From contig CM000436.1 of assembly GCA_000165345.1 (NCBI GenBank), forward strand, positions 320,001 to 384,000: a stretch of 64,000 bases of DNA, given 5' to 3'. Both the position numbers and the translations under genes were made by a program. Each line of letters opens with the position of its first letter. Within the stretch, counting starts at the first letter, position 1. Below the pieces are notes generated by a model. It was not told where the DNA came from and ran no database searches. It worked only from the letters and a program-made list of their open reading frames with translations. Positions 7,657-60,398 of the stretch are shown in pieces.

Positions 7657-9849
7657 TCAAAAATTAGCTACATTTTGTATAAATGGATGTGAGAAAGCTT
7701 CAAAAATATTAGGCCTATTTGCAGGATCATAAGTCAAAAGCCAGTTAATATATGATTTGCACTCTGAAGAAACATGATTTTCAAATATTGCACCCTTTTC
7801 AGCCTCTAAAGGTATCAATGAAAACGCTTCAGCAATAGAATTACTTCTTAAACCAAATGGCCTTCTTAAATGAAGAATCTCAAAAAATATACAACCAATT
7901 GCCCAAATATCAACTTTGTGAGAAACTATTCTTGGATTATCTAAAGAATCTCCTGGCCTTAATAGAATTTCTGGTGGCTGATACCAAACAGTACCACCTC
8001 CAATTCTCTCAATAATAATATTCCCAGATTCCTGATCAGATTGCTTACTAAGTCCAAAATCAGCAATTTTACAACATCCTCTATGGAGAATAATATTTCC
8101 AGGCTTTAAATCATAATGAATTATTGGATTCCTATTTGGAGTTATTCTATCACCATTTTTATCCAAGTTATTTAAATAAAGAATACCTTCAAGAATTTGT
8201 CTTATCCAAATAATTGCTAATTCTTCAGGAACATTACCATTTGTTTTTATAAATGTATCTAAATCTGGACCATCACACAGTTCCATAATTGTTACAAGCC
8301 TATCATTATCTACTTCAAAACAGTGAAGCATATTGACAATATTTGGATGTTTAAGATCTCTATGTAGCTTAATCTCATTACTTACTCTTTCTACGCAAAC
8401 CATTCTTTCATGTTCTGTCATATCAGGAGTAAGTTCATGAATTTTTGCAGCTGAAATACTCCAGGTATTCATATTTAATACTTCCCAAACCTCGGCAAAT
8501 CCCCCTTTTCCTATCATATTCAATAGAGTATATGCTTGAGAATCAGATAAAGTACTCAAACTGTTGTATCTTGAATTTTGTTGATGTCTAAATAGCCTGG
8601 ATTTTTTAACATATAGACTTCTTTCAATATCCAAGTTCATTCCTGATAATTCTAGTTTTTTTGTAAAATCTAATATATAATCTTGTCTTTTATTTAATAT
8701 AGAATAAGCAGTATTCTCTAAATTAGAATCCTGTTTCTTCCCAATCATTTCAATTCCATTCAAAATTTGATATGGAGTCTGATTTAGGTATCCTTGTAGA
8801 CGATTCTTTAAATTCATTAAATTCTGAAAGTTCAACCCATCTCTATAAATTTCATCATCAATATATCCTAGATTAATATGCGAAGTATAATGATTATTCT
8901 CAGCCATGTTGTTATTATTATCATCATTATTATTATTGTTATTCTTATTATTACTATCATTATTATTATCTGGATTAGTCGAGGCTAGTGTATTATAATG
9001 AACAATTTCACTTGAAGATATCTGGCTTTCTTCAATTTCTGATTTTTGTAACTCCTTCAAAGTATAACACGAATTATTCATGGAGTTTATACTACTTCTT
9101 TTACTTAAAGCCATACTTCCGCTGATTATTGATCCTTTAATATAACTATTTGCATCAAATTCTTTGTTTTCACTCGAATGTTGGGCTCTTTCAGTTATTA
9201 TATCTTGTGATATTCTATTGGAATTATCACTTTTTTCTTGTTCTTTTAAAATGATTTGCCTCTTTTTTTTCAATATATTGGCATTTGCAGCAGGAGCAAG
9301 ACCTACTTGAGATTCTTGCCAAAATAATTGATTTCTATTTAACTCTCTTTCAATCTTCTTAAGCTGAATTACTGATGTTTTAAAGCTATTCTTAATCAGA
9401 GCAAGCTTTCTTGTGAGATTTTGCTCATTGTCCTTTAGATTCTCTTTCATCAAAGTAATCTCATTACATTTCTCCATAATTTCTTCTATACTCTTATTAT
9501 TTCTTTCCATACAATCATAATCAACACAAGCTGAAATATTTTCCTTAATTTTAATAAGTTTTTCTTTCAATTTTACAATATTATCCAATATTCTATGCCT
9601 ATTTTCAGTATTATTAGATAAAGGTATCGCAAAATTTTGATCTCCTATTGACTGTTTTTCTTCATCAAGATGAATAAAAATTCCTCTTTTTTGTTGTATT
9701 CCATTATTGGAAGGGGAATGTAATCTCCCATAAAATGATTTATATCTACTCAAATACTTTGTTGCGAGAACTTGCTCATGCGCAGAAATTCTATCAATTC
9801 GATCTGAACTCAGGTCTAAATTACTTTCATTTCTATTTTCTAAATTCAT
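7657..9849 (-). CDS. TLK: Tousled-like serine/threonine protein kinase.
   Basis: The C-terminal kinase domain contains GKGGFAEVWEV (Gly loop), the TLK-diagnostic catalytic loop IIHYDLKPGNIIL (HYD instead of HRD), KIADFGLSK (DFG) and WYQPPEIL. A long N-terminal coiled-coil region (residues ~100-200) matches TLK architecture. Confidence 0.8.
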   Translation of the reverse strand: MNLENRNESNLDLSSDRIDRISAHEQVLATKYLSRYKSFYGRLHSPSNNGIQQKRGIFIHLDEEKQSIGDQNFAIPLSNNTENRHRILDNIVKLKEKLIKIKENISACVDYDCMERNNKSIEEIMEKCNEITLMKENLKDNEQNLTRKLALIKNSFKTSVIQLKKIERELNRNQLFWQESQVGLAPAANANILKKKRQIILKEQEKSDNSNRISQDIITERAQHSSENKEFDANSYIKGSIISGSMALSKRSSINSMNNSCYTLKELQKSEIEESQISSSEIVHYNTLASTNPDNNNDSNNKNNNNNNDDNNNNMAENNHYTSHINLGYIDDEIYRDGLNFQNLMNLKNRLQGYLNQTPYQILNGIEMIGKKQDSNLENTAYSILNKRQDYILDFTKKLELSGMNLDIERSLYVKKSRLFRHQQNSRYNSLSTLSDSQAYTLLNMIGKGGFAEVWEVLNMNTWSISAAKIHELTPDMTEHERMVCVERVSNEIKLHRDLKHPNIVNMLHCFEVDNDRLVTIMELCDGPDLDTFIKTNGNVPEELAIIWIRQILEGILYLNNLDKNGDRITPNRNPIIHYDLKPGNIILHRGCCKIADFGLSKQSDQESGNIIIERIGGGTVWYQPPEILLRPGDSLDNPRIVSHKVDIWAIGCIFFEILHLRRPFGLRSNSIAEAFSLIPLEAEKGAIFENHVSSECKSYINWLLTYDPANRPNIFEAFSHPFIQNVANF

Positions 9850-10020: not shown

Positions 10021-10108
10021 ATACCGGCATTCTGACAGTGTGGGGAAATGCTAAAACACCGGTACTAACATTTGCAGAAATTTGGCGCCAAACACACACG
10101 TAATTATT
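10021..10108. promoter_or_regulatory. Bidirectional promoter core between TLK (minus) and POLE (plus): ACCGGCA / ACACCGGTAC, GTGTGGGGAAATG, the palindromic E2F site TTTGGCGCCAAA, and CACGTAATTA.
   Basis: The motifs lie at 10021-10030, 10056-10065, 10038-10050, 10081-10092 and 10095-10108. The segment sits between divergent ATGs at 9849 and 10306. Confidence 0.6.
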
Positions 10109-10305: not shown

Positions 10306-13300
10306 ATGAAGAGAAGTAAAAGCTACAGGGACAATGGTCGAAAAAAGTTTGAGAGGAAGACCACTGAAAGAAAGAAAGGTAGGTTTGAGTTAGGTGGCTC
10401 TTCCAATATTGATAAAAAGTTTGGAATCAATTTTCAAAAAATTGGAGTAAATCATAGGGAAATTGGTTATTTATACAATGTTCAAGTATCATCAGAATTA
10501 ATATCTGAATCTGGAACAGCATTTGATGGAATGGAAATTGGAACTCTAGAATCTTCATCAGAACTTATTGAATCTTATAAAGAACGTTCATGTCTTAATT
10601 TATATTTTATTAATAAACAAGGAATGACATTTAAAAGTCCATTCTTCTTTAGACCATATTTTTACTTGGAAGCACAAAAAGCTGTTGATATCCATTGGAT
10701 ATTAACCAATCTTGAACATAAATATAGAGATACTACTATAGAATTTACTAATATAATGAAAGAGGATTTAACTCTTGATAATCACTTAATTGGTGAAAAA
10801 AGAGAGGTTATTAAAGCTTCTTTTGATAATGTTAAGGAACTTGTTTCTATTAGAAATGAAATTCTTGATCATATCAAGAGAAATAAGCTTGAAAAAAAAA
10901 AGAATGAAAGTTTAAGTGCTTATTACGATCAGGATCAACAAAACAACTATGAAAATAAAACTCTTGATGTATTGGATTCTATTTCAGAAATTTACGAATA
11001 TGATGTTCAATATGAAGCACGAGTTATGATTGATAACTCCATTTCTATTGGAATGTGGTATGATTCTGTACGTTGGACTCATGAACTTTTGGAATTAAAA
11101 TGTTTAGATCATGATACTTCTGCTCCTGATTTAAGAAGTTTAGCTTGGGATATTGAAACTACTAAAGATCCTTTAAAGTTCCCTAATGTAGAGAAAGACC
11201 AAATTATGATGATTTCTTGTATGTTTGAAGGTCAAGGATACCTAATTACTAATAGAGAAATTGTTTCTGCTGATATATATGATTTTGAATACTCTCCTAA
11301 AAAGGAGTATGAATCATTCTTCAAATGTATTAATTATCCTGATGAAAAAGAACTTATTTGGGGATTTATTAAACTTATTCAGACTTTAAGACCTCATATC
11401 ATTGCTTCTTATAATGGAGATAATTTTGATTTTCCTTTTCTATATGAAAGAGCTAAAAAATATGATATCGATGTTTCCAAAGAATGGGGAATACGAATGG
11501 AAATTGATCATTCCTCTGGAGGAGGATTACAATCTTCTAATAAAACTATCTTTTCTGGAACTAATATTATTCATTTAGATTGTTTTAGATGGGTAGAAAG
11601 AGATTCATATCTTCCTTGTGGTTCTAGAGGTTTAAAAAGTGTTACTAAAGCAAAGTTAAGATATAATCCTGTTGAACTTGATCCTGAATTAATGGTTCCT
11701 TATGCAAAAACAAATCCTCAAGGTCTTGCAGAATATTCTGTTTCAGATGCAGTTGCTACTTATTTTCTTTATAAGACTTATGTTCACAGATTTATATTTG
11801 CTTTAGCTACTATAATTCCTTTATCTGGAGAAGATCTTCTTAGAAAAGGGTCTGGTACTCTTTGTGAACATTTATTAATGAAAGAAGCTTTTACTAAGAA
11901 TATTTTATTTCCAAACAAAAAAGTTCAAGAAACTATGGAATTTTATCAAAATAGACCCATCTTAAATAGTACTTATGTTGGAGGTACTGTAGAATCTTTA
12001 TGTAGTGGAGTATTTAGAGCTGATATTCCTGAAAAATTCTGTTTAAATACCGATACCCTTAAACATTTAATTAAAATATTAGATACTACTTTGAATTTTG
12101 GTATTAAAGATTCTGGTACTACAATTGATAATATTGAAAATTATGAACAAGTCAGAAATGAAATTCTTGAAAAATTGCAAAGTTTATTAGAATCTCCCAG
12201 AATTAAAATTGAGCCTTTAATATATCATCTTGATGTTGCTGCTATGTATCCTAATATTATTCTAACTAATAGATTACAACCAACAGCAGTAATAGAAGAG
12301 ACAACTTGTATGAAATGTCCATTCAATTCTGAGTCAAAACTTTGCCAAAGAAGGATGAATTGGAGATGGAAAGGAGATGTTTTTCCAATTTCCAAAGGAG
12401 AGATGGAGAGAATGATTAATCATATCCAAATTGAGACTTTTGAAAATGTTAAGAATGAAATAGGAGCAGTTAACAAGAAAAAGAAATTTGAAGATCATGA
12501 AAGTGATTCAGAAAATGATGATAAGATGGAATTTACTGGAGAAAATGTTAATATTAATAATAAAGAAAAGATTAAATGGTCATCTTTAACTCCTAGACAA
12601 CAATCCGAGATTTTAATACAAAGAATGAAAGCTTATTGTAATAAGATATATAGAAAACAAACTGAGAATATTGAAGAGACAAGATCTTCAATAGTTTGTC
12701 AAAGAGAAAATCCTTTTTATATAGATACAGTTAGACGTTTTAGAGATAGAAGATATGTTTATAAAGGTAAGAAAAAAGAAGCAGAAGAAAAGTTAAAGAG
12801 AGCTGAATTATTAGGAGATTTATTAGCAGTACAGGAAGCACAGAATGAAGAGCTTTTATATGAATCTTTACAATTAGCTCATAAATGTATTTTAAATTCT
12901 TTTTATGGCTATGTTATGAGAAAAGGGAGTAGATGGTTTTCTATGGAAATGGCTGCTATTGTTACATGGGTAGGTGGTAATGTGATTAGAGAAGCAAGAT
13001 CTTTAATGGAAGGTATCGGTAGACCTTTAGAATTAGATACCGATGGGATTTGGGCAATACTTCCAAAAGGATTTCCAGAGGAAATCACTTTTAGATTAAA
13101 GGATGGTGGTAAGAAGAAGATTCATTATATTTGTACTTTGTTAAATCAACAAGTTCACAAAAGTTGGACAAATGATCAATATTTGGAATATGATGCAGAT
13201 CTTGGGAAATATAATATTAAAGTAGAGAATTCAATATATTTTGAAGTGGATGGTCCATATAAATGTTTCTTTATTCCAGCTTCTGATAAACAGAATAAGC

Positions 13301-16300
13301 TTTTAAAGAAGAGATATGCAGTTTTTGATTTTGAAAATAGGCTTAAAGAACTTAAAGGGTTTGAATTAAAGAGAAGAGGAGAGCTTCAATTGATAAAAAT
13401 TCTTCAGGAGGAGTTATTTCCAGCATTTTTAAAAGGTAATTCAAAGAAAGAAGCATATGATCATGTAGCTGCAATATCAAAGAAATGGTTAAGTTTGATA
13501 GATACTAAAGGAAGAGGTATTTTAGATGATGAACAATTATTCTTTTTGATTTCAGAGTCAAAGAATATGTCAAAGAGTGTACAACAGATGGGGAATGCTA
13601 AGTCAATGTCAATTACAACAGCAAAGAGACTTTTTGAATTTCTTCAGAATCCTTCATATATTCAGGATAAGAATATTGTTTGTAAGTTTATTGTTTCAGA
13701 GTTCCCTAAAGGAGAAGATAAAAGTCAAAGAGCAGTTCCTCTTTCTATTTTTTCAACACCTTTAGAGACAAGAGTTTCATGGCTTTCTAAATGGCTGAGA
13801 ATAAGTAAATCTGGTGGAAGGAGAGAAAAGGATGAGTTGGTGGAGCACAGGAGGAAAGCAGATGTAGATATAACGAGTGGCAGTGGTGGTGGCAGTGGTA
13901 TTCTTAATAAAGAGAATGAGAATAACAAATGGAATGTTCGTAACATTCTGGACTGGGAGTACTATAAGAACAGGCTTACAAACACTATTTTAAAGATAGT
14001 TATAATTCCTGCAATTAACCAGGGGGTTCCAAATCCTCTTCCAGAATTAGAGGTACCGAGTTGGGTAAGATACCATTCAGAGATAGTTGGTACAAATCAA
14101 CAAAAGATTTCAGAGTACTTTAATGTTGTTAAGAAGGAGGAGAAAAAGAAGAGCAGTTTCTCTGAACTTCCTAATTATAATTCTATTATTCAAGGCCGAA
14201 GTCAAGATCATGGTCAAACTCAAGATCAGGGTCAAACTCAAGATCAGGGCCAAATTCAAGATCAGGGTGTAATTCAAGACCAGGGCCAAAATCGAAATCA
14301 AAACTTAACTTTAGGTCAAGGCCAAATTCAAGATCAGGGTCAAACTCAAGATCAGGGTCAAACTCAAGATCATGGCCAAATTCAAGATCATAGCCAAATT
14401 CAAGATCATGGCCAAACTCAAGATCAGGGTCAAACTCAAGATCAGGGTCAAATTCAAGATCAGGGTCAAATTCAAGATCATGGCCAAACTCAGGCTTGTA
14501 AAATTGTAGAAACCAGAAATAACAACAGTATTTCAAAATTGAATGGAAAACTGACAAAAAAAGAGAGGATTGAATTATTCAAGGAAAAAGGATTTAAATC
14601 CTGGTTAGAGTACCATAAGAAATTTTGGTTGGAGAATTTTCATGCATTTAATGAAAAACAGTCAGAACTTGAAAAGAAGCTAAAAAATATTGATATAGAA
14701 AAACTTGAATATTTTGGAAAAGGTAATACTGCAAAAGGTATCGAATTTTTATCTGAATATATTTTCTTAACGAAAGGAAGATTTCATATTTTAGATATAT
14801 ATCCTCTTAGTATCCAACAAAGGAATATTAAAAGAAATTATGATGAAGATCTACTGGGATTTTATAATGTTGTTATGTACTCTGAAGAAACAGGAGATTG
14901 TTTTACTGTTACATTTGAGTTCCTTAGACGTTTTTATATTGCTACAAATGTTCAAATTCAAATTATGGATAATGATGATGATGGTGAATTTATTACAAAA
15001 TCTATAGCTACAGGGAAAGAGTTACCTAGAGGGGTACCGTATAATCATTTAACAGAAGTAATAATTTCAGAGAGAAGATTTCAGAAATCAAAATCAACAT
15101 TGATTTGTGATAATAATACTGTTGGTATTTATGAGACAAATTTACCACTTGAATTTTCTATTTTAGAAAAATTTGGGAATATCATAGAAAGTAATACTCC
15201 TAATGTTGAGAAATTACTTCTTAAGAATGGAGCAATTACTGATAAATTTTGGAATTCTGCTGGTGGATTAAAAGAGAAGAATTTGAATTATGGAGATATA
15301 ATACATTGGTTATTTCTTTCAATATGTACTTTTGAAGAAAGAAAATGTTTCTCTTTAACAGATTTAAGTAAGAAAAGAATTTACTTCTTTCTTGGATTAG
15401 GACCAACTATTTCTAATAATATTCTTAAATCTGAGCTTCATAGACAAATTCAACAAGATCAAAGATTGGAAAAGATTACTGAAATTCATGTTAATTATTT
15501 TAAGACAACAAAAGATTGTTTAGAAGAATTGGATCGACTTTTGAAAGATTTAATCCAAGAATTTCCAAAAGAACCTATAGTTCTTTTAATACAATCAATG
15601 GTTAGATTAGAAGAACTTAAAACACATAATAGTGAATTAAATCTTTATAAAACTATATTAAGAGAATATATTTCTGAAATGGAACATAATAAGAAAGTTA
15701 TTGAAACTAAAATAGTAACATTATGGGAAGAAATAATAGATTTTGATTCAAGTAATTCAATATTTAGTAGATTTGATTGGCATAAAGATTCGATTAGATA
15801 TTCATTAAAAGCTTTAAAAGAAGCAATTAATAAACTTCAGCTATCATTAGAACTTTCTAAAGCTTTAAGACTTCCAGTATTATATTTACTTCAATTTAAA
15901 AAAAACTTAACAAACTTTTTATATGATATAATATATTCCAGAGAACTTCATTCTATGGGATTATTAAGCTGGGGATCTTTAAGATCCACTCCAGATCTTG
16001 GGAATCCTAAGTTAATCCAACTTTCAAAAAGTGATTGGGATCTTAGAAGACTTGGATATTTAATGCCAACAAAAGATCTTAATAACTCTAAAGGAGGAAG
16101 AGTAGGTGGAGGACATAGTAATTGTAATACTAATAGCTTAGATGAATTGGATGTATTGGAAGTAGTAAGACCAGGAATCTATAGAAACTATGGGGTTCAA
16201 TTGGATTTCAAGCAATGGCTAATAATTGAATCTGTAAGAAATTGTAGGTTACTCTCTGATAAGTACAACTTGGATGACTTTGAACAAGGAGAGAAACGTA

Positions 16301-18492
16301 TTCTTGGAGCTGATTGTAAGAAAAAGAATTCTGAAAAAGATGATAAGAATAAAGATGTTTTGATCTATAATCTAGGTAGTAGAAAGCATTTGAGTAATCC
16401 AAATAATAAACAAGGCTTATTGATTTCTCAGCCTTTATATAACCATTCATCATTATCCACAAGCTCAGCTTTTCTATGTTTAGAGAAAACTATCAATAGA
16501 ATGAGATCAGTAATTGAAAACCATGAAAAAGTGGAGTCTATCTTTAGAATATACAATGCTCAAAAAACTTGTGAGAATGAACAATTTGATCAAATGAATG
16601 ACAATATTCTTGGTAAAGAAGAAGAGAAAGGGGGGAGAGAAGATAGGAAAAGGAGGAGAGAAGAAGAGGAGAAAGGGGAGGAAGAGGAAGGGGAGGAAGA
16701 GGAGGGGGAGGAAGAGGAAGAAGAAGAAGAAACTTCAAGCTTACTTTTTGAGTTTATGGTAACTCTCCAGGAAAGATTCTACTCTTGGTTATCTTCTTCC
16801 AACTCTCTCTTGTATGACCCAGCTTTAATAGAGATGACAAAAGATTATGCTCATTGGTATTTTAAATCTCTTGAATCTGATATGAGAGAAATGGGAATCC
16901 AAGTAGTATATGGAAATATTAGAAAAATGATCTTAACATTTAATTTGGATGAATTGAAGAATAATAGTATTAGGAATAATAGTGATCTCCAAAATCAGTT
17001 TTCTAAACTTATGCAAATATTAAATAACAGAGAACTATATTCTGGTATTTCTTTAGATCCTACTGTAGAGTATAAGGCTATGATTCAAATTGACAGAACA
17101 AATTATATTAGAAGAACCTTGGGAGGAGGAGGATCTGGAAGTTTGGAAGATCCATATGAAATGAATCTAAGTTTATTGAACTACTTTCCAATAAATTCTA
17201 GAAAATACATTGTTGGCGAGATTTCTAACTTTTTGATGGAGCCTCTTAGAGAATTGAGAAACTACTTCAAGAAGAATTCCAATTTATCTCTTAAGGAATC
17301 TTTGCAAATATTGGGAGACATAGTTTTGGAACAATTTGGACCTTTTAGTGAGAATTTTCAAAACTTTTTGCAGGCTATTTCCAATCCAAATACATATATT
17401 GTAAGTAAATATGGAATTCAACAGTTTGATGATCCACTAAATGATATTGGATGGAATGATGATATAATAGGGGAAGGAGAGGAAGTGAAGGAAAAGAGGA
17501 AGATTATTGAAGAGGAGGAAGAGGAGGAGGAGGAAGAAGAAGAAGAAGAAGGAAAAAGAAGGAAGAAAAAGAATGCAAACTCAATATTAGAAGAAAACGA
17601 CGATACCCTATTACTAAAGAGGAATCTAGAAAATCTAGACATTAATAATAATAGAGATGATATTCCTTTTGCTATATACCCAAATTCAATAAAGAAAAAA
17701 GGAAATAGCCATTCATTAAGGATTGAAGCTTCAACAAAAAGAATGGAAGAAAAAGGAATAAGAAAAAGAAGAAATTTCAAAGACTTATTTGAATTCCCTC
17801 CATGTATTGGAAAAGCTTATAATGGAAATAAACCCTCATTAAGCTTGGAATTAATAAAATTATTTATTTATATTTGGGGATTGGATAAATCCTTTTCAAT
17901 AGATGAATCTAAACAGAAACAATATGAACAAATAATTTTTATGGTTTGCCAAGCTGTGGATATTTCAGAGTTTAATCCAATAGTTACAGAGAAATGGACT
18001 AGTCCTTTAATTCCTTATATAATCAAAGACTTTTCTTGTCCAAATTGTTTTGAAATAGAAGATTTTGACTTTACTGGGAATGCAATACAAGATGAAGATG
18101 ATCTTGGATTATCAAGTAATAATTACAATAATATAATTAGACCAAGGTTTACTTGGTATTGTAGTCATTGTAACTTTTCTATTGATAATGAAATTTTAGA
18201 AGAAAAGCTACTTCTTGAATTCTTTGAAAGATTGGAAGTTATTCAATCACAAGATATTCTCTGTTCAAGATGTAACTCCGTTCAAATAGGTTACATGCAA
18301 AAGCATTGCGATGAATGTATGGGAGAATTAACAACAAGACTTGGAAATCATAAAACTTTCCATAATTTCTTTACTCTATTCAACTCGGTTGCTCAATATT
18401 ATTCTGATCTAAATAATGAAGAAGATGAAAATCCACAATTCCAAGGCCTTATTGAATTTAAAAATATGTATGATAATATTTTATACATTTAA
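10306..18492 (+). CDS. POLE: DNA polymerase epsilon catalytic subunit A.
   Basis: The 2728-aa ORF has B-family exonuclease motifs LAWDIETTK and SYNGDNFDFPFLYERA; polymerase motifs HLDVAAMYPNIILTNRLQP, LNSFYGYVMRKGSRWFSMEMA and LELDTDGIW; and C-terminal CysX2Cys zinc modules CPNCFE...CSHCN and CSRCN...HCDEC. Colinear with Pol2/POLE throughout. Confidence 0.95.
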   Translation: MKRSKSYRDNGRKKFERKTTERKKGRFELGGSSNIDKKFGINFQKIGVNHREIGYLYNVQVSSELISESGTAFDGMEIGTLESSSELIESYKERSCLNLYFINKQGMTFKSPFFFRPYFYLEAQKAVDIHWILTNLEHKYRDTTIEFTNIMKEDLTLDNHLIGEKREVIKASFDNVKELVSIRNEILDHIKRNKLEKKKNESLSAYYDQDQQNNYENKTLDVLDSISEIYEYDVQYEARVMIDNSISIGMWYDSVRWTHELLELKCLDHDTSAPDLRSLAWDIETTKDPLKFPNVEKDQIMMISCMFEGQGYLITNREIVSADIYDFEYSPKKEYESFFKCINYPDEKELIWGFIKLIQTLRPHIIASYNGDNFDFPFLYERAKKYDIDVSKEWGIRMEIDHSSGGGLQSSNKTIFSGTNIIHLDCFRWVERDSYLPCGSRGLKSVTKAKLRYNPVELDPELMVPYAKTNPQGLAEYSVSDAVATYFLYKTYVHRFIFALATIIPLSGEDLLRKGSGTLCEHLLMKEAFTKNILFPNKKVQETMEFYQNRPILNSTYVGGTVESLCSGVFRADIPEKFCLNTDTLKHLIKILDTTLNFGIKDSGTTIDNIENYEQVRNEILEKLQSLLESPRIKIEPLIYHLDVAAMYPNIILTNRLQPTAVIEETTCMKCPFNSESKLCQRRMNWRWKGDVFPISKGEMERMINHIQIETFENVKNEIGAVNKKKKFEDHESDSENDDKMEFTGENVNINNKEKIKWSSLTPRQQSEILIQRMKAYCNKIYRKQTENIEETRSSIVCQRENPFYIDTVRRFRDRRYVYKGKKKEAEEKLKRAELLGDLLAVQEAQNEELLYESLQLAHKCILNSFYGYVMRKGSRWFSMEMAAIVTWVGGNVIREARSLMEGIGRPLELDTDGIWAILPKGFPEEITFRLKDGGKKKIHYICTLLNQQVHKSWTNDQYLEYDADLGKYNIKVENSIYFEVDGPYKCFFIPASDKQNKLLKKRYAVFDFENRLKELKGFELKRRGELQLIKILQEELFPAFLKGNSKKEAYDHVAAISKKWLSLIDTKGRGILDDEQLFFLISESKNMSKSVQQMGNAKSMSITTAKRLFEFLQNPSYIQDKNIVCKFIVSEFPKGEDKSQRAVPLSIFSTPLETRVSWLSKWLRISKSGGRREKDELVEHRRKADVDITSGSGGGSGILNKENENNKWNVRNILDWEYYKNRLTNTILKIVIIPAINQGVPNPLPELEVPSWVRYHSEIVGTNQQKISEYFNVVKKEEKKKSSFSELPNYNSIIQGRSQDHGQTQDQGQTQDQGQIQDQGVIQDQGQNRNQNLTLGQGQIQDQGQTQDQGQTQDHGQIQDHSQIQDHGQTQDQGQTQDQGQIQDQGQIQDHGQTQACKIVETRNNNSISKLNGKLTKKERIELFKEKGFKSWLEYHKKFWLENFHAFNEKQSELEKKLKNIDIEKLEYFGKGNTAKGIEFLSEYIFLTKGRFHILDIYPLSIQQRNIKRNYDEDLLGFYNVVMYSEETGDCFTVTFEFLRRFYIATNVQIQIMDNDDDGEFITKSIATGKELPRGVPYNHLTEVIISERRFQKSKSTLICDNNTVGIYETNLPLEFSILEKFGNIIESNTPNVEKLLLKNGAITDKFWNSAGGLKEKNLNYGDIIHWLFLSICTFEERKCFSLTDLSKKRIYFFLGLGPTISNNILKSELHRQIQQDQRLEKITEIHVNYFKTTKDCLEELDRLLKDLIQEFPKEPIVLLIQSMVRLEELKTHNSELNLYKTILREYISEMEHNKKVIETKIVTLWEEIIDFDSSNSIFSRFDWHKDSIRYSLKALKEAINKLQLSLELSKALRLPVLYLLQFKKNLTNFLYDIIYSRELHSMGLLSWGSLRSTPDLGNPKLIQLSKSDWDLRRLGYLMPTKDLNNSKGGRVGGGHSNCNTNSLDELDVLEVVRPGIYRNYGVQLDFKQWLIIESVRNCRLLSDKYNLDDFEQGEKRILGADCKKKNSEKDDKNKDVLIYNLGSRKHLSNPNNKQGLLISQPLYNHSSLSTSSAFLCLEKTINRMRSVIENHEKVESIFRIYNAQKTCENEQFDQMNDNILGKEEEKGGREDRKRRREEEEKGEEEEGEEEEGEEEEEEEETSSLLFEFMVTLQERFYSWLSSSNSLLYDPALIEMTKDYAHWYFKSLESDMREMGIQVVYGNIRKMILTFNLDELKNNSIRNNSDLQNQFSKLMQILNNRELYSGISLDPTVEYKAMIQIDRTNYIRRTLGGGGSGSLEDPYEMNLSLLNYFPINSRKYIVGEISNFLMEPLRELRNYFKKNSNLSLKESLQILGDIVLEQFGPFSENFQNFLQAISNPNTYIVSKYGIQQFDDPLNDIGWNDDIIGEGEEVKEKRKIIEEEEEEEEEEEEEEGKRRKKKNANSILEENDDTLLLKRNLENLDINNNRDDIPFAIYPNSIKKKGNSHSLRIEASTKRMEEKGIRKRRNFKDLFEFPPCIGKAYNGNKPSLSLELIKLFIYIWGLDKSFSIDESKQKQYEQIIFMVCQAVDISEFNPIVTEKWTSPLIPYIIKDFSCPNCFEIEDFDFTGNAIQDEDDLGLSSNNYNNIIRPRFTWYCSHCNFSIDNEILEEKLLLEFFERLEVIQSQDILCSRCNSVQIGYMQKHCDECMGELTTRLGNHKTFHNFFTLFNSVAQYYSDLNNEEDENPQFQGLIEFKNMYDNILYI
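14201..14495. repeat. Near-perfect 18-nt tandem repeat (CAAGATCAGGGTCAAACT)n, about 16 copies, encoding (GQTQDQ)n inside POLE.
   Basis: Direct head-to-tail copies with only a few substitutions sit in the variable linker after the conserved ILDWEYYKNRL block of Pol epsilon. The repeat generates the spurious antisense ORF at 14186-14557. Confidence 0.9.
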
Positions 18493-45789: not shown

Positions 45790-54210
<8,421 letters not shown>

Positions 54211-54305
54211 CTTCAACTAATTTGCAAACTTCTTCCTCCTTTTTCCTTTTCCTTATCCCATATAATCCTCTTACCTAAATTTTCACTGCTTGACTTTGCC
54301 AAATG

Positions 54306-54696: not shown

Positions 54697-55779
54697 TTAC
54701 TCCGATAATTTTGATCGGATAACCTTTATTAACCACTTCTCGATATCTACAATACAGTCAATTTCGAATCTCTTTTGATCCTGCTGCATTTGCATGCAAA
54801 ATGTATTCCACTCTGATTTTGATTCTTGAGAAATCTCATTTGAACTCATTAGTCTGTTTCTGGTATTAATTATTCTCGAAATTTCATCTTGTGTAATATC
54901 AAAAACATTATATGTAGCTATTAGCTCGTTCTCTATCAACTTCGAAACAGGAGGAACTTTAATTGGCAAAAGTTTTGGGATACTAAAACTTGAATCATAC
55001 CAAGTGCCTGATTTACCTCCCATTATATACGTTGCTGCTATTGAAAGTCCAAAACAGTCGTAATCGCATAGAATCCAGAACTTTGTATCTTCTGGAAGAT
55101 CTTGACTTAGTCTGTATAGTAAAGTCCTAGTAGGTAGATCCGAAAATCCTCTAGCTGTAATTAATATACAAGAATTATCAAACTCTTTATGAAATCCAAA
55201 TTCTAAAAGTCTTTGGAAAATAGTATCCTTTTCAACAACCAAAACAAACTTGATCTTTGAATAGTAGCTAAACTTTAAACCATTCATACCCTTGAATAGA
55301 TAAGGACTTATCGAATGCCCCATACTTTCAAAAATGGACATACAATCCAATCTAACCTCTCTTCTTCTTTCACAAAATCCTATTTCGTATCCTTGAATTA
55401 TCAAAGGACCTCTTATCCTCCCTCTAGCTGTGGAAACCACGTTCAAAAGTTCTCGAGGAGTCTGTACTAGATGAGTTACTTGTGCAATATATTTGTCTGA
55501 AATACTTTGTTTTGTATATAAACTCGGATTATTATAATAAATATCTCTTAAAGTCGAATGGAAGCCTTCCTTGACATTTCTATGAAGAATATTCATAACC
55601 GAAACCAAACAAGTTGAATTGTAAATTTGACTCCTACTTCCTCCATTTATTAACTCCCTTATTATGCTACATACTGAACTTTCCAAACGACTTGTAATTC
55701 TTTTATCTTCACCTTCTAAAACAAGAAGCTTATCCTTACTTTTACCTCTCTCAATCAAATTCCTCTCTTCTTGCACCAT
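54697..55779 (-). CDS. SPO11: SPO11 / topoisomerase VI subunit A homologue (meiotic DNA double-strand-break transesterase).
   Basis: The catalytic tyrosine context STLRDIYYNNPSLY matches RDI(F/Y)Y. The Toprim region FVLVVEKDTIFQRL (acidic metal ligand), ILITARGFSDLPTRTLLYRL and ILCDYDCFGLSIA (DxD) is colinear with yeast Spo11 IVIVEKEAVF / LITGKGFPDFLTRLFL / FTDADPYGISIA. Confidence 0.8.
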   Translation of the reverse strand: MVQEERNLIERGKSKDKLLVLEGEDKRITSRLESSVCSIIRELINGGSRSQIYNSTCLVSVMNILHRNVKEGFHSTLRDIYYNNPSLYTKQSISDKYIAQVTHLVQTPRELLNVVSTARGRIRGPLIIQGYEIGFCERRREVRLDCMSIFESMGHSISPYLFKGMNGLKFSYYSKIKFVLVVEKDTIFQRLLEFGFHKEFDNSCILITARGFSDLPTRTLLYRLSQDLPEDTKFWILCDYDCFGLSIAATYIMGGKSGTWYDSSFSIPKLLPIKVPPVSKLIENELIATYNVFDITQDEISRIINTRNRLMSSNEISQESKSEWNTFCMQMQQDQKRFEIDCIVDIEKWLIKVIRSKLSE

Positions 55780-56040
55780 TACGCCATCACTTAATCACAC
55801 TTTCTTCTTCCATCCCACCTATTATTTTATCCCATTATATGACTTTTCCATAAAATCCCTTTAATTTCAAATATATTAATCCTATCAAATCGAAAAATAG
55901 CCGAAACCTTGGCTATACTTCGCTCCAGAAAAAAATTCAACAATTTAATTTCTCAGATTCTTCCTTCCCTAATATTGCCAAATACATTACAATTTTTTCA
56001 TGTCGCCTTCATTTTATATTTTTTCCCCTTTGGGCTCCTC

Positions 56041-56092
56041 TTGCATGCAAAACTCCTCATTAATAAAAATTGGTACACCAAACTTTGGCGCC
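56041..56092. promoter_or_regulatory. TTGCATGCAA and TTTGGCGCC in the divergent SPO11 / 56638-gene promoter.
   Basis: Positions are 56041-56050 and 56084-56092. Confidence 0.5.
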
Positions 56093-56637
56093 TAAATGTC
56101 ACTCGACGTTAATTACCGTCAACCTTGGCAATTTTATTGCCGGCAGCATTTAGAGGTAAAAAAATAATATAAAATTGGTACCTAGTAAAAATTTGAGAGT
56201 TTTAGGTGCTTTTCTAGCCAAATTTTTTGAATTTCGGTATACTTTTCTAGATATATAATTGGAGTTGCTGTTTGTAGGGTTACTGGATATTATTGGATAT
56301 CAATTATAAGAAAGGATTTGATAAAATTTGGTATTGAAAATCAATTTTTTGGTATTAAAAAGGTTTTTTGGATTTTTATTCAGCTTCTAAGTGCTTATTT
56401 AGCAGAATTTTTTAACAATATTCTCAAAGCAATAAATAAGTTAAGTTTCTACTTTTCTTTTGGTATTTATATATTTTTGAATGCCTTTAATTAAAATTAT
56501 TAAATCGCATTTTTTAGACCCATTGCCTCAGGATTCAAATATAAAAGAGTTTTCAAGAGATAGAATACGGAGATAGGATTAATATTCGAGATTGAATCAC
56601 AGTGATTACTATTTTTCTGTTTATTTTAAATAATCAT

Positions 56638-58515
56638 ATGTGGCATAACGTTTCAAATAATTCATTGGCAAACTCATGTCTTCACAGACTTGATGATTAT
56701 TTTCGACATGAAAGTTCATCAAGTTCATCACAACTTATTCAGAATGGTATAATTCAAAGTAATTTAGGAGGTAATCATTTAATTAAGACATGTTCCTCTC
56801 CAATAGGTAACCCCCAATATTACCCTGGAAAAGATATGGAGTGCATAAATGCTCCAAGAGACCAAGAGAGAGTACTTAATAGCTATAAAAGCTTTCTAAA
56901 TATGGATAGAGTGATGCCCTGGATGTTAAACATTGATTCTTTTAACTTACCAAATAGCAACCAACAACCTTGTTCTCCTTCTTCACCTCCTAACAGTATG
57001 AATCCTGGGCATCAATTTGGCTTAAATTCGAATCCTTGTCAGAATCCGAATATGAATTCTAGTACATATGTTAGCAATCAATACCAGAATTCTCAGCAAC
57101 AACATAGCTTGCATAACTATAATCGTATTGATGATTTAAAATACATGGAGAAGATAAATTTATTTGCGGAACGTAATCCTCAATTAGGACTGAATAATGT
57201 TTTTAGTGCATCTCCAGTCAAGAGTGATACATCTACAGCAACTCCTTCATCTATGAGGTCAATAATTAATGATGGGTTTTTCAATAATTATCAAGATGAT
57301 AGAAAGTCTAGTATTCAAAGTTACTTTTCATCCGGAACAAGCAATCATCATGGATATGGTTTAAACTTTAATGGAGGAAATAGTACAGCTAGTAGTAGTT
57401 ACAATGGGAACAATAATGTATTTACAACTGGTTTAGGAGGGACAAATTTTGGAGGAATGGAGCATTATCGTTTAGGAGATGTTCCACCTCTTAGTTTTAG
57501 TTACCTTGATAAGAATAGAAATGAAGCTTACTACACCCAAGCAAGTAACCTTTTGAAGATTCTGAGTCCATCTTGGATTCTTTGTATTGATATTGCTGCC
57601 ATTTTACTTACTAATACAGATAATAAGATGGCATTAAGCAACATTGGTCCTAAACTATCATGTTTTGCCAGAGACGCTTTAAGGCAAATTAAGCAGAAGA
57701 AACTTTCAAGATTTATTAAAGAACATAGTAATTTCTTTGATATAAGAAGACCTTCTCCTTCACACTCTGCATTGTATGTTACTTTGAAATTTCCTTTGCC
57801 AAATATTGTTCAACAATTTCTACCTTCAATAGTCCAACTAAGGAAATATGAATTAGAAAGAAATCAGATGAACAATAATATCCAAGCAATGAATGAATTT
57901 TCTGAGAATGATTTGGAACAATCTCAAAATGTAAACTCAACAGCAACAGTGGTAATGTCGGAAGAAAGGGTGAATACAACTTCAAAAGAAGGTAGTGCAT
58001 GTAAATTGTCAGAAGATACTGACAATAAAGTGGAATGTACTTCAATTTCAAATAAACAGCAGTTTGACCAAAATTTAACTCAAAAAAAGAATTTAGAAGA
58101 GAAGAATTGTGTAAATGATCAAATTCCTAGCTCTGTAAAGTCTTATCAAGCTTATGAGTGTTGGTTGTGCGTAAGGGAGTTTGCAAATGTTCTTATTCAT
58201 CAACCAACACATACAATGGAATTAAGGGAAATCGGGGTTCTAATGTCTCAAAAGGCAAAGATTCAAGCTAAAAGAAATAGTTCAAAAAAGAATTACAAAT
58301 CCTTTTTATTATCATACCCAAAATTGTTTAGGATTTTTGGTAAAGATGATAATCACTCTATTCAATGGATTGGGTCCAGCCAAGACTTCATCAAATTGAA
58401 CTCAATTAAATATCAACCATCTCAATCAGATGATGAATTATTTAATATACCAACTTTAAATCAATCACATTTACAATTTTTGTTCAATCTTAACAACTCT
58501 TCAATGTCACTTTAG
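56638..58515 (+). CDS. Hypothetical Ser/Asn-rich protein.
   Basis: The ORF track starts at a GTG at 56602, and the first ATG is at 56638. N/S/Q low complexity is present. There is no recognisable domain apart from a Cys-containing segment, YECWLCVREF. Confidence 0.5.
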   Translation: MWHNVSNNSLANSCLHRLDDYFRHESSSSSSQLIQNGIIQSNLGGNHLIKTCSSPIGNPQYYPGKDMECINAPRDQERVLNSYKSFLNMDRVMPWMLNIDSFNLPNSNQQPCSPSSPPNSMNPGHQFGLNSNPCQNPNMNSSTYVSNQYQNSQQQHSLHNYNRIDDLKYMEKINLFAERNPQLGLNNVFSASPVKSDTSTATPSSMRSIINDGFFNNYQDDRKSSIQSYFSSGTSNHHGYGLNFNGGNSTASSSYNGNNNVFTTGLGGTNFGGMEHYRLGDVPPLSFSYLDKNRNEAYYTQASNLLKILSPSWILCIDIAAILLTNTDNKMALSNIGPKLSCFARDALRQIKQKKLSRFIKEHSNFFDIRRPSPSHSALYVTLKFPLPNIVQQFLPSIVQLRKYELERNQMNNNIQAMNEFSENDLEQSQNVNSTATVVMSEERVNTTSKEGSACKLSEDTDNKVECTSISNKQQFDQNLTQKKNLEEKNCVNDQIPSSVKSYQAYECWLCVREFANVLIHQPTHTMELREIGVLMSQKAKIQAKRNSSKKNYKSFLLSYPKLFRIFGKDDNHSIQWIGSSQDFIKLNSIKYQPSQSDDELFNIPTLNQSHLQFLFNLNNSSMSL

Positions 58516-58780: not shown

Positions 58781-58898
58781 TACACGTAATTAACTTGTCA
58801 GATTTTTTTTTTTTTGCTATTCAATTTTTATCTTGCATGCACTTAGACTGTAAAAATTTGCATGAATTTGGCGCCTATTTGGCTTTGCCACGTCATTG
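58781..58898. promoter_or_regulatory. Promoter of the SLC35 transporter gene: TACACGTAATTAAC, TGCATGCA, TTTGCATG, TTTGGCGCC and CACGTCATTG.
   Basis: Positions are 58781-58794, 58844-58851, 58857-58864, 58867-58875 and 58889-58898. Confidence 0.5.
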
Positions 58899-59111
58899 AA
58901 AGAATTATTTGCCAAAATTGACAAATGATGTGACAAAAGAAGTAATATCAAAAGAATCAGAAATTTAAGTGTTTATGTTTACTAATAATTTATTGATCTG
59001 CCGATGAAGAGATAATCGGATTAATTTTGAAAAAATTGCAATATTTTGACATAAAATATAAAAGAGATTTAAAGGAAGAAAAAGAAAAAAAAGCAATAAT
59101 ATGGATTAAAA

Positions 59112-60398
59112 ATGATAGAGCTTTCATTGGGAAAACCAAGTCCTGAAAGAGGAGGTGATAATTCATTGATTAGTTTTCAGAAATATTATGAATTTGAAAA
59201 AGATTTAACAATAAATAGCCACGAGAATAATAACACAGAAAATTATGATATAAGTAATAACCAATTTGTCAATGTTGGAAAATTCTTAATCATTGAAGAT
59301 GAAAATTTTCAAAACAAAAGAGAAATAGTTACAGAACCTGTTATAGAAGTTAGAGAATTAATTAATACAGAATTAAATATTAATCAGCCTTCAGATTCTT
59401 TTCAATTAATGAAGGTTGAAGAATCTATTACGAGCATTTCAATTTCCATTACCATCTATATGATTGTGAGTATTTCAATAGTATTCTTGAACTATAAAAT
59501 TTTTTCAGGAATCATTGAATTTCCAATATTTGTTTCTTGGTTTCAACAACTAGTTGGGTTGGCAATCTTTCAAATTCTAAAAATTTATAAAAATCACCTA
59601 AGATTTGAATTGACTGAATTTACTCACTTTGATCATTTTGAATGGGAAACAGGAAGACATATGATACCATTAGCATTGTGTTTTATTGGAATGGTTTCTT
59701 TGAGTAATATATGCTTAAAACATGTATTAGTTTCAACTTATCAAGTTGCAAGAAGTACAACGATTATTTTTAATCTAATTCTTTCATATAAAATATTAAA
59801 ACAGAAATCTTCAATTTTTACTGTAGCATCTTGTATTATTGTAATGATTGGGTTTACAATAAGTGCATTTGATTCAAATACATTAAATTTGAATGGAGTA
59901 ATTTATGGGGTATTTTCATCAATTATACAATCATTTTATAGTGTATTGATAAAAAAACAGCTAAATATTGTTAATAACAATCAAATTCAACTCTTATATT
60001 ATCAGTTAATTTTATCTTCAATAATGTTTATACCTATTCTGATTGTTACTGGTGAAATCAGATTTTTTTTTATATTATTTGACATTAATCAAGGAATATT
60101 CAAAATATGTTTATTATTAAATTTCTTAATAATTTCCGGTGTTTTGTCAATACTAATCAATTTCTCAACTTTTCAGCTTATTAAGAAAACAAACTCTATA
60201 ACTTTTAATATTATTGCTTTACTAAAGTCATGCATTCAAAGTATTGGCGGGATTTTATTTTTGAATGAAATAGTTACTTTTCAATCTATTTTTGGAACAG
60301 CTCTAACATTATTTGGAACGTTTATGTATAGTTTTAATTCAAATAATAGAAACTCAATAAATAGTATGGAATATCAAGATTTAGAAAATAGAAATTGA
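59112..60398 (+). CDS. Nucleotide-sugar / triose-phosphate transporter family (SLC35 / DMT) membrane protein.
   Basis: About 10 TM helices. The segment LSNICLKHVLVSTYQVARSTTIIFNLILSYKILKQKSS matches the TPT/SLC35 core (vSFyQV.K..tp.f..l.s.l.l..k.s). There is an unusual ~110-aa hydrophilic N-terminal extension. Confidence 0.55.
   Translation: MIELSLGKPSPERGGDNSLISFQKYYEFEKDLTINSHENNNTENYDISNNQFVNVGKFLIIEDENFQNKREIVTEPVIEVRELINTELNINQPSDSFQLMKVEESITSISISITIYMIVSISIVFLNYKIFSGIIEFPIFVSWFQQLVGLAIFQILKIYKNHLRFELTEFTHFDHFEWETGRHMIPLALCFIGMVSLSNICLKHVLVSTYQVARSTTIIFNLILSYKILKQKSSIFTVASCIIVMIGFTISAFDSNTLNLNGVIYGVFSSIIQSFYSVLIKKQLNIVNNNQIQLLYYQLILSSIMFIPILIVTGEIRFFFILFDINQGIFKICLLLNFLIISGVLSILINFSTFQLIKKTNSITFNIIALLKSCIQSIGGILFLNEIVTFQSIFGTALTLFGTFMYSFNSNNRNSINSMEYQDLENRN

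Follow-up and report, generated by a model that had tools for sequence, protein, structure and literature searches.

Does the stretch of Cryptosporidium parvum DNA analysed here encode a catalyst of meiotic DNA double-strand breaks (DSBs), or a topoisomerase VI (topo VI) subunit of the same protein family? The stretch, referred to as the window, comprises 64,000 nucleotides (contig CM000436.1 of GenBank assembly GCA_000165345.1, positions 320,001 to 384,000 of the forward strand), and the question is raised by one minus-strand open reading frame (ORF). We found that this ORF very probably encodes SPO11 (cgd8_1350), the catalytic (A-type) subunit of the meiotic TopoVI-like DSB complex. This analysis showed that the gene is intact, belongs to the family, retains its catalytic residues, is under purifying selection and lies in conserved synteny, and that its motifs are conserved, while stage expression, the activity of an orthologue, the B-like partner and the second paralogue cgd3_2720 are taken from the literature. 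The gene is laid out as follows:

54697 to 55779, minus strand: SPO11 coding sequence (C. parvum cgd8_1350), 360 codons plus stop, uninterrupted and without introns.

An intact SPO11-family gene had been proposed at exactly this position from the letters of the DNA (hereafter the original prediction), and its coordinates proved correct to the base: there is a single ORF, no frame disruption, and the ATG is the first start codon past an in-frame stop located 5 codons upstream. The ORF product has the same amino-acid sequence as EAK89350.1 of C. parvum Iowa II, which is named 'topoisomerase VIA/SpoII nuclease subunit, toprim domain'. As a Ser/Thr kinase ORF at 7657-9849 (minus strand) matches cgd8_1230 and the Spo11 ORF lies exactly 12 ORFs further along, we infer from gene order and product name that the latter is cgd8_1350, 'Spo11/DNA topoisomerase 6 subunit A'. 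The gene is therefore already annotated. It is the known and transcriptomically characterised C. parvum SPO11, and neither the annotation nor its expression in females, both published, is new.

The ORF product is a member of the Spo11/Top6A superfamily, as it possesses a 5Y-CAP domain with an Arg-x3-Tyr arrangement, a Toprim metal site and the corresponding fold. The domains and active-site motifs are distributed over the gene as follows:

55438 to 55614, minus strand: winged-helix/5Y-CAP domain, residues 56-114, Pfam TP6A_N (PF04406, 65.4 bits, cutoff 26).
55534 to 55548, minus strand: RDIYY, residues 78-82, with the winged-helix domain (WHD) Arg78 and the catalytic Tyr82 (codon 55534-55536), assigned by alignment to yeast R131/Y135; Tyr82 corresponds to Y65 of the PfSpo11-type protein.
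54742 to 55248, minus strand: Toprim domain, residues 178-346, Pfam TOP6A-Spo11_Toprim (PF21180, 76.8 bits, cutoff 24.1).
55225 to 55239, minus strand: VVEKD, residues 181-185, with the Toprim metal-binding Glu183 (Toprim-E1 of the published family alignment); E183 and K184 are invariant.
55138 to 55158, minus strand: TARGFSD, the Toprim-G (Gly211) DNA-pocket motif, not of the GQPD type of Top6A; G211 and D214 are invariant.
55048 to 55065, minus strand: DYDCFG, residues 239-244, the Toprim DxD metal site (Asp239, Asp241) followed by Cys in place of the usual Pro; D239, Y240 and D241 are invariant in Cryptosporidium and Plasmodium orthologues.
54754 to 54768, minus strand: FEIDC, with the Toprim-E2 (Glu339) active-site glutamate (Toprim-E2 in Allen & Maxwell, Fig. 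S1); E339 and D341 are invariant.

The RDIYY, VVEKD and DYD motifs, whose preservation had been claimed beforehand, are thus all located in the ORF (78-82, 181-185 and, for DYD as part of DYDCFG, 239-244). Alignment with Spo11/Top6A orthologues showed that the catalytic Tyr is not lost, R78/Y82 pairing with yeast Spo11 R131/Y135 without a gap. Furthermore, R78, Y82, E183, K184, G211, D214, D239, Y240, D241 and E339 are invariant among 25 Cryptosporidium and Plasmodium orthologues. This set covers every catalytic or active-site mark in the published alignment, namely WHD-R, the catalytic Tyr, Toprim-E1, Toprim-G, DxD and Toprim-E2.

Structural comparison led to the same family. The best sequence match in the PDB was yeast Spo11 (8urq, E = 2e-15), with archaeal Top6A next. 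Saccharomyces cerevisiae Spo11 (PDB 8urq/8uru), the SPO11-1 prototype, has the same two-domain layout and was also the top structural match: yeast R131/Y135 correspond to R78/Y82, VEKE to VEKD and DAD to DYD. Identity in the structural alignment is only ~19-20%, and yeast carries DADPYG and TGKGFPD. Instead of a recognisable TopoVIB-like subunit, yeast uses Rec102/Rec104. An AlphaFold2 (AF2) model of SPO11 built with 25 orthologues had a mean predicted local distance difference test (pLDDT) score of 72.5, with values mostly of 75-95 in the Toprim domain and lower ones over residues 211-220 and 251-270. A Foldseek search of the PDB with this model returned 9 significant matches (E <= 0.001), all of them Spo11/Top6A chains with E values from 2.5e-11 to 3e-7. 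Global template modelling (TM) scores were low (0.34-0.41), which is expected for two flexibly linked domains.

The gene is also maintained across the genus. SPO11 orthologues of 356-377 amino acids occur in at least 11 Cryptosporidium species, and the ORF is intact in 8 species (C. parvum and the 7 loci that were fetched), all with conserved synteny. The ratio of nonsynonymous to synonymous substitution rates (dN/dS) was 0.09 for C. parvum against each of C. tyzzeri, chipmunk genotype I and C. ubiquitum, and 0.07 for chipmunk genotype I against C. ubiquitum, indicating strong purifying selection on SPO11. C. parvum would accordingly encode a complete, selectively maintained meiotic DSB catalyst, in keeping with an obligate sexual cycle and with the genetic crosses that can now be made with this parasite.

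Judged by sequence, cgd8_1350 is orthologous to Plasmodium PfSpo11 (PF3D7_1217100, formerly 'PfTopoVIA') and to a Toxoplasma 'type IIB topoisomerase'. PfSpo11 is the closest characterised orthologue, with ~32-35% identity over more than 80% of the length, and combines Tyr-dependent Spo11 function with a TopoVIB-like partner: it rescues sporulation of a yeast spo11-null mutant, the Y65F variant does not, and it binds PfTopoVIB. Both proteins have TLR(D/Q)I(Y/F)Y, VEK(D/E)T, TA(R/K)GF(S/P)D and a DYD after which Pro is replaced by another residue. The C. parvum protein differs from PfSpo11 by an N-terminus that is 30 amino acids longer, by insertions at residues ~130-137 and ~162-170 and by the Cys, rather than Ala or Val, after DxD.

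How unusual is the DYDCFG loop? It had been described as an odd replacement for DADPYG, and we surveyed the DxD site in 127 family representatives, all non-redundant and from outside the alveolate clade. The middle position of DxD varies freely (Ala 39%, Cys 14%, Tyr 9%, others), while the residue that follows is Pro in 87% of the representatives and Cys in none (0/127). Inside the alveolate clade DYD or DFD is dominant, and Pro is lost in 7 of 18 representatives. Plasmodium orthologues read DYDAYG or DYDVYG and hence lack the Pro; a 327-amino-acid protein of the P. falciparum group, for instance, carries Tyr at position 65 and DYDVYG. In C. andersoni SPO11 the DxD is followed by Ala rather than Cys. 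These data indicate that, at the level of the alignment, the Cys after DxD is the sole Cryptosporidium-specific part of DYDCFG and that loss of the Pro is a trait of the alveolate clade. The claim of an unusual loop thus holds for the Cys, but neither for the Tyr within DxD, found in 9% of the family, nor for the missing Pro, which recurs in alveolates including PfSpo11.

One might argue that loss of the Pro marks cgd8_1350 as a weakened or non-catalytic SPO11 paralogue acting as a structural partner of cgd3_2720. The rarity of Cys and the prevalence of Pro across the family would fit such a role, as would the presence of two paralogues that are both female-enriched and the use of a SPO11-1/SPO11-2 heterodimer by plants. 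However, R78, Y82, E183, D239, D241 and E339 are all kept and invariant at a dN/dS of ~0.08. The PfSpo11-type protein lacks the Pro as well (DYDVYG), yet PfSpo11 rescues yeast spo11 through its Tyr, and loss of the Pro is therefore compatible with activity. Moreover, Arabidopsis reportedly needs the catalytic tyrosines of both heterodimer partners. We consider it most improbable that cgd8_1350 is a degenerate subunit; a catalytically competent SPO11 is the reading that we favour.

A different role is implied by database names such as 'topoisomerase VIA' and 'type IIB DNA topoisomerase'. The protein might be a true topo VI A subunit that, together with Top6B, decatenates or relaxes DNA during the multiple nuclear divisions, as has been proposed for the Plasmodium orthologue. 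Archaeal and plant Top6A/SPO11-3 proteins (for example Sulfolobus shibatae 2zbk and Methanocaldococcus jannaschii 1d3y) share a homologous fold and catalytic chemistry with SPO11, but Top6A is a reversible, ATP-dependent strand-passage enzyme that works with a full Top6B. Two independent phylogenomic studies found no topo VI in Apicomplexa, which lack SPO11-3/Top6A, canonical Top6B, RHL1 and BIN4 (Allen & Maxwell, 2024; Brinkmeier, 2022). According to the same studies Apicomplexa, including Cryptosporidium, have SPO11-1 and SPO11-2 paralogues and one TopoVIB-like subunit; the latter has been reported in C. ubiquitum. The C. parvum paralogue pair consists of cgd8_1350 and cgd3_2720 (Tandel, 2019, orthogroup table). 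In line with this, the Top6A signature TKRDLFY / TAKGQPD / D(S/A)DPYG is absent from the protein, which reads TLRDIYY / TARGFSD / DYDCFG and, without the GQPD Toprim-G motif, does not group with SPO11-3.

Phylogenetic analysis was consistent with a position outside the Top6A/SPO11-3 clade. An exhaustive profile search retrieved 3063 SPO11 relatives, the nearest of which, beyond Cryptosporidium and Plasmodium, stem from Toxoplasma, Eimeria, Babesia, a gregarine and dinoflagellates. Word-indexed searches for the second paralogue and for named Arabidopsis anchors yielded only close orthologues or algal and fungal sequences. In a neighbour-joining (NJ) tree of 148 relatives the alveolate clade was placed next to DxN-type sequences. 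With named anchors and 200 bootstraps NJ recovered the alveolate clade at 60% and supported no deep node, the grouping of alveolates with SPO11-2 reaching 12.5% and with SPO11-1 3.5%. Four-cluster likelihood mapping over 240 maximum-likelihood (ML) quartets gave weights of 0.41 for SPO11-1, 0.41 for SPO11-2 and 0.18 for SPO11-3, with a single one of 61 resolved quartets in favour of SPO11-3. Scores against subfamily hidden Markov models (HMMs) were 179 bits for SPO11-1, 126 for SPO11-2 and 110 for SPO11-3, and hhalign likewise favoured SPO11-1, although the SPO11-1 profile is the most diverse and broadest, which inflates its score and confounds the comparison. Placement outside SPO11-3, which agrees with the published ML trees, thus has moderate support, and the ORF product is best described as a putative meiotic SPO11 rather than Top6A. 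Accordingly, the earlier label 'SPO11 / TopoVI-A' stands in its first half, whereas the second is disfavoured by the published absence of topo VI from Apicomplexa, by likelihood mapping and by the subfamily HMMs.

The same tests did not separate SPO11-1 from SPO11-2. Quartets restricted to Cryptosporidium gave SPO11-1 a weight of 0.54. Just 4 diagnostic positions could be found, and they are split between the two. RDIYY is SPO11-1-like; TA(R/K)G and the aromatic middle residue of DxD are SPO11-2-like. According to Allen & Maxwell an Asp-to-Asn change in DxD is restricted to SPO11-2; C. parvum SPO11 has DxD and not the DxN that is typical of plant SPO11-2. DxN was dropped as proof of SPO11-2 membership, because it is also present in other, unassigned representatives (LVDANPHG, LVDGNPFG). 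For the same reason the DFN found in place of DxD in a Babesia duncani member of the alveolate clade (protein P0063) is a hint on paralogue identity and not decisive.

The apicomplexan clade also contained a Spo11 annotated as originating from a bee, 'Hylaeus volcanicus' (XP_053992847.1, P0056), which clusters with that of the gregarine Digyalum oweni. It probably derives from an apicomplexan parasite contaminating the bee assembly.

When is the gene expressed? Spo11 is among the meiotic genes expressed preferentially in females (Tandel, 2019). The mean log2 expression of cgd8_1350 was 3.7 in sorted asexual parasites, 7.2 in in-vitro females and 7.3 in in-vivo females, and the log fold change (LogFC) of females versus asexual stages was 3.5, or ~11-fold, for cgd8_1350 (supplement) and 4.3 for cgd3_2720 (Tandel, 2019). 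Cryptosporidium is haploid and meiosis follows fertilisation (Tandel, 2019), so SPO11 mRNA stockpiled in the macrogamete would suit breaks being made in the zygote or early oocyst. The meiotic role assigned to the gene in the original prediction is thus in keeping with published expression in female gametes and, by analogy, with the functional data on the Plasmodium orthologue.

Several observations weigh against a meiotic DSB catalyst. Mauzy (2012) places 'topoisomerase VIA' among the genes peaking at 12 h, in the asexual cycle, and together with the generic E2F-like sites described below this would allow for some non-meiotic expression of SPO11. Decatenation of DNA and an association with mitochondria have been reported for the PfSpo11/PfTopoVIB pair. 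The AF2 model is of just moderate quality, the Cys after DxD is unique among the family representatives, and our literature search for a direct experiment on the Cryptosporidium protein or on cgd8_1350 function found none. Some of these points would suit a topo VI A subunit: besides the 12-h peak, the promoter carries an E2F-like site, a kind seen on replication genes, and the pair of PfSpo11 and PfTopoVIB was able to complement a topo II mutant of yeast and, in extracts, to decatenate DNA. The ~11-fold enrichment of the transcript in females, however, is at odds with such a role, as are the subfamily scores, quartet weights and missing Top6B described above. PfSpo11 and PfTopoVIB were proposed to act in the segregation of mitochondrial DNA, whereas the mitosome genome has reportedly been lost in Cryptosporidium, which leaves no organellar genome to segregate. 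The mitochondrial role proposed for PfSpo11 is therefore inapplicable to Cryptosporidium, and since SPO11 is under constraint there, its function cannot be the segregation of mitochondrial DNA. Taken together, a true topo VI A subunit appears to be very improbable. Strong constraint in a parasite without a mitochondrial or apicoplast genome argues that the conserved TopoVIA/Spo11 role is nuclear and meiotic, and not organellar decatenation as in the Plasmodium proposal.

For SPO11 as the meiotic DSB catalyst, both the break-forming activity and the partners are predicted, and a mechanism can be proposed from yeast Spo11 and Top6A. Two Spo11 protomers would assemble on DNA, held by the TopoVIB-like subunit. 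Tyr82 of each protomer would attack the phosphodiester backbone, aided by Arg78 and by Mg2+, for which Glu183, Asp239 and Asp241 in the Toprim domain of the partner protomer may provide the binding site. The expected products are covalent 5' Tyr-DNA ends from which recombination would start. Transcription in the female gamete might leave the enzyme ready for meiosis after fertilisation in the developing oocyst.

What drives this expression? SPO11 transcription probably starts from a compact promoter within the 858-bp spacer that separates the gene from its divergent neighbour, and the function of this promoter is, again, a prediction. The elements of the spacer are:

55780 to 56637, no strand: head-to-head intergenic spacer between SPO11 and cgd8_1360, 858 bp, from the ORF map.
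56638 to 58515, plus strand: divergent neighbour cgd8_1360, an uncharacterised ORF of 625 amino acids from the first ATG, with syntenic orthologues 616-625 amino acids long.
56084 to 56092, plus strand: E2F-like site TTTGGCGCC, 305-313 bp upstream of the SPO11 ATG, fitting the published Motif 3, DTTGSCGCCH.
56042 to 56050, plus strand: AP2_1-type site TGCATGCAA, 263-271 bp upstream of the SPO11 ATG, fitting the published Motif 1, BGCATGCAH.
56042 to 56145, no strand: conserved composite island found by footprinting, comprising TGCATGCAA at 56042, TTTGGCGCC at 56084, TGTCACTCGACGT at 56097, GTCAACCTTGGCA at 56118 and TGCCGGCA at 56138.

One of the two motifs flagged in the original prediction, GCATGCAA, lies at 56043-56050 in the spacer, and both match exactly the consensus of the E2F-like (DTTGSCGCCH) and AP2_1 (BGCATGCAH) families (Oberstaller, 2013). 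In the window TTTGGCGCC was observed 9 times versus 0.01 expected, with 7 of the 9 copies intergenic and upstream of genes, and TGCATGCA 8 times versus 0.5 expected. The E2F-like element is the most abundant upstream element in C. parvum (~2,379 genes) and has no particular expression pattern, while the AP2 protein cgd2_3490 binds TGCATGCA (Oberstaller, 2013). The two motifs are thus real but generic, genome-wide elements and not meiosis-specific signals.

In contrast to the published motifs, the sites upstream of SPO11 are embedded in a longer conserved block with the additional invariant elements CGTCGAGTGAC, TGCCAAGGTTGAC and TGCCGGCA. All 8 species have an E2F-like site upstream of SPO11, and 7 of them have the paired TGCATGCA as well. 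The E2F-like site reads GGCGCC in five further species, GGCGGGAAA in C. felis and TTTTGGCGC, in opposite orientation, in C. andersoni. It lies ~35-55 bp upstream of TGCATGCA in C. parvum, C. tyzzeri, chipmunk genotype I, C. ubiquitum, C. canis, C. felis and C. andersoni. Blocks of the island, including CGTCGAGTGAC, TGCCAAG(G/A)TTGAC and (T)GCCGG, are invariant across five species, whereas their flanks have diverged. The elements follow one another in the same order in C. andersoni and C. bovis, although TGCATGCA has decayed to TGCATGTA in the latter. The additional elements were not found among the published C. parvum motifs that we examined.

As Rfam and tRNA searches of the island gave no match, we rejected the idea that it is an RNA gene, and the indels between its blocks, which are not multiples of three, show that it is not coding. 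A predicted promoter is therefore the favoured explanation. The head-to-head layout itself recurs, since a neighbour of ~500-625 amino acids lies 415-906 bp upstream of SPO11 in 6 of 7 other species; the gene call in C. bovis starts ~1.46 kb away. The sole domain signal in cgd8_1360 is a sub-threshold match to WH_Egal, and the gene is listed as sporozoite-enriched (log2 ~11.0 in sporozoites, compared with 5.5 at 24 h and 7.7 at 48 h). As it is thus sporozoite- and not female-enriched, sharing the spacer does not imply co-regulation, and the island may drive SPO11, cgd8_1360 or both. Of the divergent promoter originally proposed to be shared by the two genes, the motifs and the layout were borne out while co-regulation does not follow. 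The island is the one mildly new point of this analysis and offers a testable cis-regulatory module for a gene induced in sexual stages.

Plants have SPO11-1 and SPO11-2, and Cryptosporidium likewise keeps two paralogues (cgd8_1350 and cgd3_2720), both induced in sexual stages, for which a heterodimer is putative. Tentatively, we speculate that both paralogues are switched on together in female gametes and might form a plant-like heterodimer with the TopoVIB-like subunit, and that cgd8_1350 is driven by an undescribed, genus-conserved module of ~100 bp (TGCCGGCA, TTGCCAAG, CGTCGAG, E2F-like, TGCATGCA), a scenario that we regard as possible but rather doubtful as a whole. In Plasmodium, by contrast, one SPO11 paralogue is said to be essential in asexual stages. 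If the speculation were true, Cryptosporidium, which has no organellar DNA, would be a clean system for an ancestral apicomplexan 'TopoVIA-like' role as nuclear meiotic DSB formation.

Further copies of these motifs occur elsewhere in the window. Upstream of a gene of the triose-phosphate-transporter family (59112-60398, plus strand), TGCATGCA at 58834, TTTGGCGCC at 58867 and TGCCAAAATTGAC at 58910 follow each other in the same order; this ordered trio (58834-58922) suggests a recurring composite promoter architecture. Another copy of TGCATGCA is located within the SPO11 coding sequence (54791-54798), where it spans Cys-Met-Gln codons near the C-terminus. It is probably fortuitous, as the residues differ in other species (CEQ, CQQ).

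The neighbour on the other side of SPO11, cgd8_1340 (45790-54216, minus strand), is an 'uncharacterized' protein of 2808 amino acids whose C-terminal third consists mostly of poly-Gln/His tracts. Precomputed Pfam matches to Med14 exist for the orthologues from chipmunk genotype I, C. felis, C. canis and C. andersoni, and cgd8_1340 thus looks like a Mediator Med14-like protein. Inside this 2808-amino-acid ORF, at 51763-51840, TGCATGCA (51763) and TTTGGCGCC (51832) lie 69 bp apart. With TTTGGCGCC expected 0.01 times per window, this pair may mark an internal or antisense promoter. Finally, a perfectly palindromic E2F-like site, TTTGGCGCCAAA, is found at 10081-10092 in the divergent spacer between the kinase (7657-9849, minus strand) and an ORF of 2728 amino acids (10306-18492, plus strand).

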